Source of the DNA: Alphaproteobacteria bacterium
GTDB lineage: Bacteria > Pseudomonadota > Alphaproteobacteria > CALKHQ01
Reading direction: 5' to 3'
Assembly (NCBI GenBank): GCA_965227515.1
Contig: CBDDFZ010000001.1
Coordinates: 3,840,001-3,904,000, forward strand
DNA length: 64,000 bases
How positions within the stretch are numbered: position 1 is the first letter of the stretch; the number at the start of each line of letters is the position of its first letter. The notes under the pieces are model-generated. The model did no database searches and was not told where the DNA came from. It saw nothing but the letters and a program-made list of their open reading frames with translations. Both the position numbers and the translations under genes were made by a program. Shown piece by piece: positions 1,927 through 5,162 of this stretch.

Positions 1927-2099
1927 GCAAAACTATTGAGAACGTTATTGCGAAACAGGCACTAGTTGCGGCGTGGGTGGTTGTGTCGGATTTGACGAAT
2001 CGTCGCGCGAAATCCTTGAGACCGATGGCCGAATAGTTGCGCCGCGTCATGGAACCGAGGATAACCGTTTGCCTCGGGTGGCAAGAGCGGCGGGGAACC

Positions 2100-3227
2100 A
2101 TGCCTGAAATCAACTACTTGACGCGCATTATCTTCGACTCAGGTGCGGTCGCGCAGACCGGCGACCTGCTGGCGGCGCGCGGACTGACGCGGCCGATGGT
2201 GGTGACCGATGCCGGCATCGTCGCCGCCGGTCTGGTGGCCAAGCTGATGGACGCGCTGCCGAACGAGGCCGTGGTGTTCGACGGCACGCCGCCCAACCCC
2301 ACCGAGAGCGCCGTTCACGACGCCCTCGCGCTGTTCCGGGAGAATGGCTGCGATGCGCTGGTCGCCATCGGCGGCGGCTCGTCCATCGACCTCGCCAAGG
2401 GCGTCGGCCTGCTGGCCACCCACCCGGCGCCGCTGGCGCAATATGCCGCCATCGACGGCGGCATCGCGCGGATCGCCAAGCCGACCACGTTCCTGATCGC
2501 GGTGCCGACCACCGCCGGCACCGGCAGCGAGGTCGGCCGCGCCGCCCTGATCACGCTGGACGACGGGCGAAAACTCGGCTTCATCAGCCCGCACATGATC
2601 CCGGATATCGCGCTCTGCGACCCGGACCTGACGCTGGGCCTGCCGCCGGGCCTGACCGCCGCCACCGGCATGGACGCGCTGACCCACTGCATCGAGACCT
2701 TCCTGTCGCCGCGCATCAACCCGCCGGCGGACGCCATCGCGCTCGACGGTGTGGCGCGCGCCAGCGCCTGGATCGGCCGCGCGGTGGCCGACGGGTCCGA
2801 CCCGAAGGCGCGCTGGGAGATGATGATGGCCTCGCTGCAGGGCGGGCTCTGCTTCCAGAAGGGCCTGGGTGCCGTGCATTCGATGTCGCACCCGCTGGGC
2901 GGGCTGAAGGACCCGGTGCTGCACCATGGCACCCTGAACGCTGTCATCCTGCCGCCGGTGCTGCGCTACAACGAGGATCATGTCGGCGACAAGTACGAGC
3001 GGCTCTGCGCCGCGATGGGGCTGGCCGCCAACGACGACCCCGCCGATGCCATCGCCCGGTTGAACCAGGAGCTAGGCCTGCCGGCCAATTTGCGGGCGAT
3101 GGGCGTGCCGGAGGCCGTGGTGCCCGCGATGGTCAAAGGCGCGGTGGCCGACCATTCCACCGCCACCAATCCGCGCCCGTTGCAGCAGCCGGACTTCGAG
3201 CACCTGTTCGAAGCGGCGATGGGGTAG
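2100..3227 (+). CDS. Iron-containing alcohol dehydrogenase (4-hydroxybutyrate dehydrogenase-like)
   Basis: GGGSSID, PTTAGTGSE, GMDALTHCIE, HSMSH and HHG metal motifs. Confidence 0.92.
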   Translation: MPEINYLTRIIFDSGAVAQTGDLLAARGLTRPMVVTDAGIVAAGLVAKLMDALPNEAVVFDGTPPNPTESAVHDALALFRENGCDALVAIGGGSSIDLAKGVGLLATHPAPLAQYAAIDGGIARIAKPTTFLIAVPTTAGTGSEVGRAALITLDDGRKLGFISPHMIPDIALCDPDLTLGLPPGLTAATGMDALTHCIETFLSPRINPPADAIALDGVARASAWIGRAVADGSDPKARWEMMMASLQGGLCFQKGLGAVHSMSHPLGGLKDPVLHHGTLNAVILPPVLRYNEDHVGDKYERLCAAMGLAANDDPADAIARLNQELGLPANLRAMGVPEAVVPAMVKGAVADHSTATNPRPLQQPDFEHLFEAAMG

Positions 3228-3352
3228 CGCAGGAATTCGTAGATGGGCTAACGGCCCTTGTTTGGTGGCGTGCATGAGTGGTCGTCCCTCAAGATGTCGG
3301 TGTCATACACGGAGTCGGGTTTGCCGCTCCAAGACATCGAGGAGAGACGACC

Positions 3353-4396
3353 ATGAACTACTATGCCGGGATTGACGTTTCTTTGGAATGGTCATCGGTG
3401 TGCGTTGTTGACGGCGCGGGCGGGATTGTCTGCGAGGCTCGTATTGCGAGCACGCCGGCGGGTTTGTTGTTGTGGTTTGGGTCTTTGGGGATTTCGGTTG
3501 AGCGGATTGGTCTTGAGGCGGGGCCGTTGTCGCAATGGCTTGTGCGGGAGTGCGCGCAGGGCGGTCTTTCGGTTGAGTTGCTGGAGACGCGTCATGTTGC
3601 GCGGGCCCTTTCGACGATGCCGGTGAAGTCGGACCGCTCGGACGCACGCGGGATTGCTCAGCTGATGCGTGTGGGCTGGTTTCGTCCGGTTCACTGCAAG
3701 TCTTTGGCGGCCCAGGAGATGCGGGCCCTTTTGAAGGGTCGCGACCAGCTCCGCGCGAAGCTGCACGATCTTGAGATGCACCTTCGTGGTCAGCTGCGGA
3801 ACTTCGGGCTGAAGGTAGGGCACACCACCAGGCGCAGCTTTTCGACACGTATTTCGGAGCTTGTGGCGGGGCATCCGGTACTGGAGGCGGTGGCGGGGGC
3901 GCTGCTGTCGGCACGCGATGGCCTGTTGCTATCGTTCACGGCGCTGGACCGGCAGGTCCGAGCGGCATCGCAGGCGGACGATCGCGCTCGCCTGCTGATG
4001 ACGGTGCCGGGCGTGGGGAGCATTGTCGGACTGACCTACTTGTCGGGAGTGGACGACCCCGGGCGGTTTGCCTCGTCGCGCCTGGTGGGGGCGCACTTCG
4101 GCCTGACGCCGACCAAGCGCCAGTCGGGCGAGAGCGAGATGACGGGGCGGATCTCGAAGGTGGGCGATGCGGACGTGCGTGCAGCGCTTTACGAGGCGGC
4201 GCACGTAATCCTGACCCGGCCGATCAAGGGCGGGTGGTTGAAGAGCTGGGCGATGAAGCTGGCCAGGCGAGCCGGCATGAGGAAGGCGAAGGTCGCGCTG
4301 GCGCGCCGGCTGGCCGTGATCATGCACCGGATGTGGGTTGACGGCACCGCGTTCAACCATGCCGGACCGGTGCGCCCGGCGATGGCAGCGGCCTAA
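3353..4396 (+). CDS. IS110-family transposase/recombinase
   Basis: GIDVS, GLEAG, KSDRSDA (RuvC-like DEDD), VPGVG, GLTP..QSG catalytic Ser, ISKVGD. Confidence 0.95.
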   Translation: MNYYAGIDVSLEWSSVCVVDGAGGIVCEARIASTPAGLLLWFGSLGISVERIGLEAGPLSQWLVRECAQGGLSVELLETRHVARALSTMPVKSDRSDARGIAQLMRVGWFRPVHCKSLAAQEMRALLKGRDQLRAKLHDLEMHLRGQLRNFGLKVGHTTRRSFSTRISELVAGHPVLEAVAGALLSARDGLLLSFTALDRQVRAASQADDRARLLMTVPGVGSIVGLTYLSGVDDPGRFASSRLVGAHFGLTPTKRQSGESEMTGRISKVGDADVRAALYEAAHVILTRPIKGGWLKSWAMKLARRAGMRKAKVALARRLAVIMHRMWVDGTAFNHAGPVRPAMAAA

Positions 4397-4399
4397 TGG

Positions 4400-4645
4400 C
4401 AAAGACGACCGCCGCATAGGGAGAACCAGCACACGAGCTTCGGCGGGCGCAGACACCGGCCCGTCAAGCGCCGTCCCGCGCCGGGACGATGGATCAGGTC
4501 AGGCCGCCATCCAGGATGTCGCCTCGCACGAGAGCACGCTTCCGTAGATTGGACCGACCGATCCTCGCATATCCATCTTGGTGGCGGCCGTGCGCCGACC
4601 CCGTACAGAAGCATGACCCAGGCGCCGGGACGACGAAAAAGGGAT
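4400..4645 (+). ncRNA. Putative bridge/seek RNA of the IS1111-type element
   Basis: Structured 3' non-coding region with stem-enclosed loops that carry matches to both target arms and both donor ends (see findings); boundaries approximate. Confidence 0.7.
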
Positions 4646-4671
4646 TGACCAACAATGGCCCGTTACAGAAG

Positions 4672-4754
4672 CCTGGGTGGAGCGCAGCGGAACCCGGGTT
4701 TCGGCAATCCGCAAACAAGGTCCCCGGGTTTCGTTTCACGTCACCCGGGCTACG
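4672..4754. repeat. GTAG-type REP doublet; first unit split by the IS110 insertion
   Basis: Reconstructed CGTAG-CCTGGGTGGAGCGCAGCGGAACCCGGG pairs with the inverted copy CGTAGCCCGGGTGACGTGAAACGAAACCCGGG (about 4723-4754, minus strand). Confidence 0.75.
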
Positions 4755-4763
4755 GTGCGAAGC

Positions 4764-5162
4764 CTACCCCGGCACCACCGCGGTGCACTCGATCTCGACC
4801 TTGGCGCGGTCTTCCAGCAGGCTCCTGACCTCGACCAGGGTCATGGCCGGGTAGTGCGCGCCGAAGCGCAGCCGGTAGACGGCGCCGATCTCCGCCGTGC
4901 GGGCGGCATAATCGGCCTTGTCGACGACGTACCACGTCATCCGCGCCACATGCTCCGGGCCCGCCCCGTCGCAGGCCAGCACGGCAAGCACGTTGTCCAG
5001 CGCCTGGCCGACCTGGTCGACCAGATCATCCGACGCGAAGGTCCCGTCCGCCTGCCAACCGATCTGGCCGGCGACGAACACCATGCGGCCCTGCGCCGAG
5101 ATGCCGTTGGCGTAGCCGCGTGGCGTCGGCCAACCATCCGGCTGCAGTGTCTTTTGTGTCAT
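4764..5162 (-). CDS. RidA/YjgF-family protein
   Basis: GYANG, FVAGQIG, YPAMTLVEV, KVEIE motifs. Confidence 0.92.
   Translation of the reverse strand: MTQKTLQPDGWPTPRGYANGISAQGRMVFVAGQIGWQADGTFASDDLVDQVGQALDNVLAVLACDGAGPEHVARMTWYVVDKADYAARTAEIGAVYRLRFGAHYPAMTLVEVRSLLEDRAKVEIECTAVVPG

Follow-up and report, generated by a model that had tools for sequence, protein, structure and literature searches.

RNA-guided recombinases of the IS110 and IS1111 groups are under development for genome writing, and mechanistic work has dealt mostly with IS621 and ISCro4, which belong to the IS110 group. The bridge RNA of IS621 has two internal loops with two guides in each, and the guides of a loop read opposite strands and overlap at a 2-nt core (PMC11208160, PMC11208158). 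In the IS1111 group, the transposase is a DEDD protein of 330-350 aa with a GL-P----S/TG motif (Siddiquee 2024, PMC11187229), and each end carries a subterminal inverted repeat of 7-17 bp that a short extension separates from the terminus (Durrant 2024, PMC11208160). The seekRNAs described for the IS1111 elements ISEc11, ISPa11, ISKpn4 and ISPst6 are associated with a long 3' non-coding region, and their top-strand match lies 5' of the bottom-strand match, the two overlapping at the insertion point (PMC11187229). The short and long forms reported are 82/154, 96/172 and 82/151 nt (PMC11187229, PMC13604230). ISPa11 targets a REP sequence beginning with GTAG (PMC13604230), and ISPpu9/Ssr9 of Pseudomonas putida is an IS110-family system found in REP sequences, in which the transposase gene is followed by a gene for a small RNA (PMC12288879). 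A promoter formed at the junction has been described for these families (Siddiquee 2024, PMC11187229; review PMC13604230).

The window considered here is the whole stretch of 64,000 nucleotides that was analysed. Positions 3243-4671 are very probably an active-looking insertion sequence of the IS1111 group, whose 3' non-coding region encodes a bridge RNA (long seekRNA) on the strand of the transposase. This reading draws on the anatomy of the sequence, on the site-specific insertion of 20 copies in the genome, and on the covariation of guides and stems among relatives. The features are collected in Table 1.

Table 1. Positions in the window of the insertion sequence, its target and the parts of the predicted RNA.
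Feature	Positions	Strand	Remarks
Left target arm and core	3236-3242	+	TTCGT-AG
Insertion sequence	3243-4671	+	1429 nt; core AG assigned to the right end; 3241-4669 is an equally valid drawing
Left end	3243-3257	+	Terminal ATGGGC, then left subterminal inverted repeat TAACGGCCC (3249-3257)
Transposase/recombinase gene	3353-4396	+	347 aa; motif residues D8, E55, D94, D97, S258
P0 hairpin	4437-4469	+	Just 5' of the RNA core; relatives have a hairpin of other sequence there (by eye)
Predicted long bridge/seek RNA core	4472-4632	+	161 nt; closed by P1 (4472-4485 with 4617-4632)
P2 stem-loop	4487-4567	+	81 nt; target-binding loop; stems 4487-4506 with 4550-4567; predicted short seekRNA
5' target guide	4507-4517	+	9 nt (4507-4515), then AU at the core positions
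P3 hairpin	4518-4537	+	Variable; within the target loop
3' target guide	4541-4547	+	UCCGUAG
5' donor guide	4572-4578	+	UCCAUCU
P4 hairpin	4580-4602	+	Separates the two donor guides
3' donor guide	4604-4611	+	UACAGAAG
-35-like box	4645-4650	+	TTGACC; 21 nt from the terminus
Right end	4657-4671	+	Subterminal inverted repeat GGCCCGTTA (4657-4665), then terminal CAGA and core AG (4670-4671)
REP-like palindromic repeat	4672-4760	+	Supplies the target; right arm CCTGGGTGG at 4672-4680

The left junction reads ...TTCGTAG|ATGGGC (3236-3248), or ...TTCGTAG|ATGGGCTAACGGCCC when extended to 3257. The right junction reads ...TACAGAAG|CCTGGGTG (4664-4679), or ...GGCCCGTTACAGAAG|CCTGGGTGG in a wider view (4657-4680). 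The part that can be assigned to either junction is exactly the dinucleotide AG, and nothing else is common to the two. The element can therefore be drawn from 3243 to 4671 with AG as the crossover core. The subterminal inverted repeats agree at 8 of 9 positions, and each lies 6 nt from its terminus. A 396-aa frame at 2037-3227 looks by eye like an iron-containing alcohol dehydrogenase, and the element starts 14 nt past its stop codon.

The transposase matched PF01548 (1.6e-12) and PF02371 (1.1e-19) in Pfam, and the NCBIfam model NF033542, 'IS110 family RNA-guided transposase', with 236.5 bits (cut-off 140). Its C-terminal half aligns to the solved transposases of IS621 and ISCro4 (E ~1e-10), and the motifs GIDVS, LEAG and SDRSDA align with the ISCro4 transposase. 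Residues 250-259, GLTPTKRQSG, include S258 and fit the motif GL-P----S(T)G. The non-coding sequence measures 275 nt after the stop codon (4397-4671) and 110 nt before the start codon (3243-3352). The length of the protein, the 9-nt subterminal repeats and these unequal non-coding regions therefore place the element in the IS1111 group, as the first-pass annotation had proposed from the DNA letters. The insertions are also site- and orientation-specific, with no target duplication beyond the core, in 20 of the 20 copies of the genome, which is a further mark of that group.

The motifs and junctions listed in the first-pass annotation were all found again at their positions, and the P2 stem seen there pairs GGATC-A-GGTC (4491-4500) with GACC-GATCC (4556-4564). 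That annotation had spread the RNA over 4400-4671. The predicted RNA does lie within this span but does not fill it, since the conserved core is limited to 4472-4632, preceded by the hairpin at 4437-4469. The 5' target guide likewise stands where it had been placed, as CATCCAGG (4508-4515), but is one nucleotide longer, and in the window copy its 9 nt form 9 pairs with the right arm, one of them a wobble. The AU after this guide pairs with the A of the core only, and most relatives have CU there. The 3' target guide has the sequence of the left arm and core, and it would pair with the bottom strand. It agrees at 6 of 7 positions, and the contiguous match of the window copy, CGUAG, is just 5 bases. 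The 5' donor guide, which includes CCATCT (4573-4578), is complementary to the core and left end (AG-ATGGG) with one U·G wobble. The 3' donor guide, UACAGAAG in the RNA and TACAGAAG in the DNA of the window copy, is identical at 8 of 8 positions to the right end and core (4664-4671).

Folding of the single sequence from 4397 to 4667 was unremarkable (z = -1.43), and 20 of 200 shuffles folded equally well. The minimum-energy fold pairs two guide regions with each other and reaches -94.0 kcal/mol, compared with -81.2 kcal/mol for the comparative structure. In this alternative fold, the top of P2 and the 5' target guide (4503-4518) pair with the 5' donor guide and the 5' strand of P4 (4570-4588). 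The wider alignment of relatives gave no support to this guide-guide pairing. A fold of the region had been named as a check in the first-pass annotation; it is the stems of the comparative structure, which covary, and not the single-sequence fold, that bear out the predicted structure. No family of Rfam 15 matched window positions 3000-5000 at E up to 1, and Rfam 15 appears to have no model covering this scaffold.

Relatives were searched in one genome per species, which gave 75 loci with proteins 37-68% identical, so that the nearest relatives found have at most 68% protein identity. An iterated nucleotide profile from window positions 4470-4640 located the scaffold 3' of the gene in 56 of the 75 loci. 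The 19 loci without a scaffold match were left out of the alignment, which comprised 41 distinct sequences. RNAalifold recovered P2 and P4 from this alignment, and 14 of the 21 pairs had both partners changed. P2 has 14 pairs, 9 with both sides changed, and P4 has 7 pairs, 6 with both sides changed. When P2, P4 and three P1 pairs were taken together, 90.3% of cells were paired, compared with 37-55% when the 3' partners were slid. With these P1 pairs included, 15 pairs had changes on both sides, and the covariation score was reached by 0 of 500 shuffles. P1 is misaligned by a gap in the alignment and was tested instead by duplex energy, with the 3' strand taken from the same or from another sequence. 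The mean was -16.9 kcal/mol for the own strand and -11.0 kcal/mol for cross-paired strands (18 distinct strands; permutation 0/20000). At the place of P3, a hairpin of at least 4 pairs was present in 41 of 41 relatives. On the + strand, the stems contain many G·U pairs, for example in 35 of 41 sequences at one P2 pair. These would be C·A on the opposite strand, and the fold therefore points to an RNA of the + strand, in the direction of the gene. The AG core, which the first-pass annotation had assigned, does not vary among the aligned guides of the 41 distinct relatives.

The plasmid collection contained no match to the element, and its 90% protein cluster is confined to this genome and one short contig. 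In one relative (L044:2602-3007), a second RNA module and right end directly follow the full element, so that the scaffold occurs twice in the locus.

The right terminus of each relative was taken as the place where the 7-nt end-plus-core word of its 3' donor guide recurs with an adjacent subterminal repeat. Generic inverted-repeat searches had returned mostly spurious repeats and were replaced by this recurrence. The word recurs 60-106 nt downstream in 46 of the 55 loci having that column, and the chance expectation for recurrence of a 7-mer within 320 nt is about 2%. The end words were of three kinds, ACAGAAG, AGAGAAG and AGCGAAG, and each is found again at the terminus that belongs to it. 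Three loci with a right end set by a 6-mer only (L093, L094, L053) were dropped from the counts, as was L044, whose flank is the second copy of the RNA module; L081 was dropped in the left-arm test.

The 5' target guide and its own right flank form a mean Watson-Crick run of 7.41, compared with 3.17 for the flanks of other guide classes. A complementary run of at least 7 was present in 21 of 32 unique pairs, the other 11 being below this length, and in 5 of 892 mismatched pairs (permutation 0/20000, 12 class representatives). In L040, L041, L060 and L097, the 5' target guide did not fit its own right flank. The 3' target guide has the sequence of its own left arm at 3.58 of 6 pre-core positions, compared with 1.69 (16 classes, 0/20000). 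Two loci of one genome, L031 and L035, differ by one base in the guide and by one in the target, and a 1-nt insertion distinguishes L057 from L059 in guide and target alike. At the left end, GGCAU pairs with ATGCC in L058 and L085, and CACCAU pairs with ATGGTG in L040. The donor-guide covariation comprises only about three independent variants per side. Guide-target covariation across homologs had been suggested as a check on the four guides first read from this one sequence, and all four covary with flanks or ends in relatives.

L041 has a flank that matches the guide of L036, from the same genome; mobilisation in trans, or drift since the insertion, may account for this. L052 has AA instead of the core AG at its right junction, while its left junction and both guides have AG, and this may go back to a mismatched core when the element was inserted. 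Immediately 3' of the core, the 3' target guide has the dinucleotide AU in most relatives (4548-4549 in the window), and the left end likewise starts with AT. The corresponding dinucleotide of the 3' donor guide agrees with the beginning of the right arm in 7 of 25 unique pairs (permutation 784/20000). This signal is too weak for a claim of handshake-like positions, and no clear equivalent of the handshake positions of IS621 was found here.

The assembly of 5.5 Mb in two contigs contains 20 full copies, 93-100% identical to the query, and one deletion remnant, and a profile search of the whole genome for the RNA found nothing else. The deletion derivative, on contig 1 at 998350-999208 (L021, L022), is without the part corresponding to about 3960-4550 of the window, and has thereby lost the gene's 3' end together with the target loop. 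Frames of 345-347 aa with the DEDD and GL-P----SG motifs are open in all 20 full copies. The recombinase had been called intact and reprogrammable in the first-pass annotation. The copies agree with the former term, and the latter is in keeping with natural variation, namely a one-base guide change within the genome and other guides with other targets in relatives. Insertion of other copies at sites unrelated to the guides had been named in that annotation as a refutation, and the copies did not refute it: all 20 share one orientation and the site GTAG|CCYGGRTG, where a REP-like palindromic repeat has its edge. The left arm is GTAG in 20 of 20 copies and CGTAG in 15 of 20. The C at position -5 was not enriched (15 of 20 occupied and 74 of 105 empty sites, p = 0.79), and the reach of the left guide beyond GTAG is therefore not readable from this genome. 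Unoccupied sites in the whole genome number 105 with a strict pattern and 114 with a looser one, and an uninterrupted ...CCGTAGCCTGGGTG... is seen beside copy 20. The REP-like repeat at 4672-4760 is an inverted pair, and its minus strand offers another target that is empty, CCGT-AG-CCCGGGTG (4742-4755).

Guide base 4513 divides the copies into two sublineages, A with an A at this base and B with a G. Sublineage A has the guide CAUCCAGG and consists of 7 copies (the window copy, 5 near-identical copies and copy 20), 6 of them at CCTGGGTG and 1 at CCTGGATG. Sublineage B has the guide CAUCCGGG and 13 copies, of which 9 are at the exact complement CCCGGATG, 2 at CCCGGGTG and 2 at CCTGGGTG. The 125 available sites, occupied and empty, comprise 40 CCTGGGTG, 4 CCTGGATG, 24 CCCGGATG and 57 CCCGGGTG. 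Sublineage A occupies CCTGG (T-type) sites in 7 of 7 cases, and T-type sites are 35% of the total (binomial p = 6.7e-4). Of the 13 copies of sublineage B, 11 occupy CCCGG sites and 2 occupy G·T wobble sites. This sublineage stands at its own perfect match in 9 of 13 cases, a type that accounts for 24 of the 125 sites, or 19% (binomial p = 1.2e-4). The two sublineages differ at target position 3 with a Fisher p of 4.6e-4. Where any of the 20 copies departs from a perfect match within the 8 positions, the pair is always a wobble, U·G or G·T. None of the 81 available C sites holds a copy with the A guide, for which an A·C mismatch would be needed. The occupancy by sublineage B is 9 of 24 for perfect matches and 2 of 57 and 2 of 40 for wobble sites, a difference of about ten times.

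Site occupancy would then follow the rules of RNA:DNA pairing, including their asymmetry, in which a G guide also uses T sites and an A guide shuns C sites. It is probable, on the sequences of these copies and sites, that a single A-to-G change at 4513 gave rise to two lineages of one insertion sequence, which live in the same genome and divide the variants of one REP family between them. Contigs from four DNA runs end at the borders of the element (3238/3239 and 4673-4676) and have the letters of sublineage B at 4513, 4529, 4582 and 4590. None of these contigs spans an empty site, and none has a circle junction.

The role of the donor loop can be read differently. In ISEc11, the 82-nt short seekRNA moves a mini-IS with ends of 50 and 46 bp at least as well as the 154-nt form does (PMC11187229). 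Therefore, the donor loop may be dispensable in the IS1111 group. In that case P2, which has a comparable 81 nt here, would be the only guide, the protein would read the ends through the subterminal repeats, and the donor matches would be those of a precursor or regulatory RNA. The subterminal repeats of IS1111 elements are long and could be read by a protein, and the variants behind the donor-guide covariation are few. However, in all three classes of end word a change of the right-end word in the RNA goes with the same change at the real terminus, the left-end guide tracks the ATGCC and ATGGTG variants, and P1 and P4, which shape the donor loop, are kept with compensatory changes. Donor-complementary loops have also been reported in IS1111 members (Durrant 2024, PMC11208160). 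We therefore regard guidance by P2 alone as unlikely.

A second alternative dispenses with guide RNA altogether. REP sequences are hot spots for several IS families, according to work in the reference list of Durrant 2024 (PMC11208160), and the target might be chosen by the protein or by the DNA structure of the REP palindrome. The non-coding region would then be a 3' UTR or terminator that resembles the ends and the target because of a past end duplication, and its unremarkable single-sequence fold would be no surprise. This is strongly disfavoured, and we give it very little weight. Within one genome, a one-base difference in the guide predicts which REP variant is occupied, and the transposases of sublineages A and B have only about 8-11 differences in 347 residues. 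Where relatives use unrelated targets, their guides match these, down to the 1-nt insertion shared by guide and target in L057 versus L059, and the covariation of the stems includes G·U pairs on just one strand.

A long bridge RNA with both loops active thus remains the preferred reading, and a mechanism can be proposed for it by analogy. The outer stem P1 would enclose the target loop on P2 and the donor loop around P4. The DEDD/Ser recombinase would bind this RNA, as judged from its homology with the proteins of IS621 and ISEc11. The target loop would hold the REP-like target and the donor loop the joined ends of the excised circle, where the 5' donor guide would pair with the core and left end. 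Strand exchange would take place at the AG dinucleotide, and AG would flank both junctions because the strands were exchanged there. Transcription, RNP formation and the chemistry of strand exchange would resemble those of IS621 and ISEc11.

A scan of 3150-4800 for sigma-70-type promoters found no complete site inside the linear element. Among 33 distinct right ends of relatives, 26 have TTGAC at a distance of 21-22 nt from the terminus. At a spacing of 17 nt, a GAAGAT hexamer would straddle the junction only once the ends are joined in a circle. It is likely from these positions that a promoter is formed at the circle junction, as described in the families mentioned above.

The element described here is a bridge/seek RNA system of the kind described in 2024 (Durrant 2024; Siddiquee 2024), and the general picture of the mechanism is unchanged. 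It shares with the IS1111 seekRNA elements the DEDD transposase, the GL-P----S/TG motif, the subterminal repeats, the long 3' non-coding region and the order of the two strand matches, and its predicted RNAs of 81 and 161 nt are close to the short and long forms reported. Like ISPa11, it targets a REP sequence beginning with GTAG. Unlike the known seekRNA elements, it has a target of its own, CGT-AG-CCYGGRTG, and the nearest relatives found for it are at most 68% identical in protein. It may already have a name in ISfinder. ISPpu9 has the same setting in REP sequences and the same order of genes, but its genome has extra stand-alone copies of the RNA gene (PMC12288879), whereas this one has the 20 full copies and one remnant only. 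The duplicated RNA module of L044 recalls the separate small-RNA modules of ISPpu9 (PMC12288879).

Two internal loops, two guides in each on opposite strands and a 2-nt core overlap are shared with the bridge RNA of IS621, and the recombinases are homologous. In both systems the 5' guide of each loop is longer and the 3' guide shorter, the former having 8-10 nt here and 8-9 nt in IS621 (PMC11208160). In IS621 the RNA gene precedes the transposase gene, whereas here it follows it and is part of the right end. The order of the guides is the reverse of that in IS621 (PMC11208160). The target hairpin is nested in the closing stem of the donor loop, whereas IS621 has two tandem stem-loops, and the subterminal repeats are long (9 nt). 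When the site is read on the opposite strand, it becomes CCACCCAGG-CT-ACG, with the core CT as in IS621. We infer that in this reading the long 5' guides are bottom-strand guides and the short 3' guides top-strand guides, which is exactly the rule of IS621. The IS1111 and IS110 groups would then share one RNA-DNA geometry, and what sets them apart would be that the cassette of gene and RNA is inverted with respect to the recombination site.

Our analysis provides an IS1111-type example annotated to the base, with four guides, the core, four stems and a likely junction promoter, together with about 40 distinct natural variants of the scaffold that carry different guides. What it adds to the known kind is the one-base natural retargeting, observed over 20 insertions among about 125 candidate sites. 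Because these sites are nearly identical, the copies are a small natural data set on the effects of a guide base and of wobble pairs on target choice. For the host, the element marks those REP copies that are liable to insertion. If the division of sites between the two sublineages did arise from the change at 4513, the genome would hold a natural record of single-base reprogramming and mismatch tolerance in an IS1111-type recombinase.
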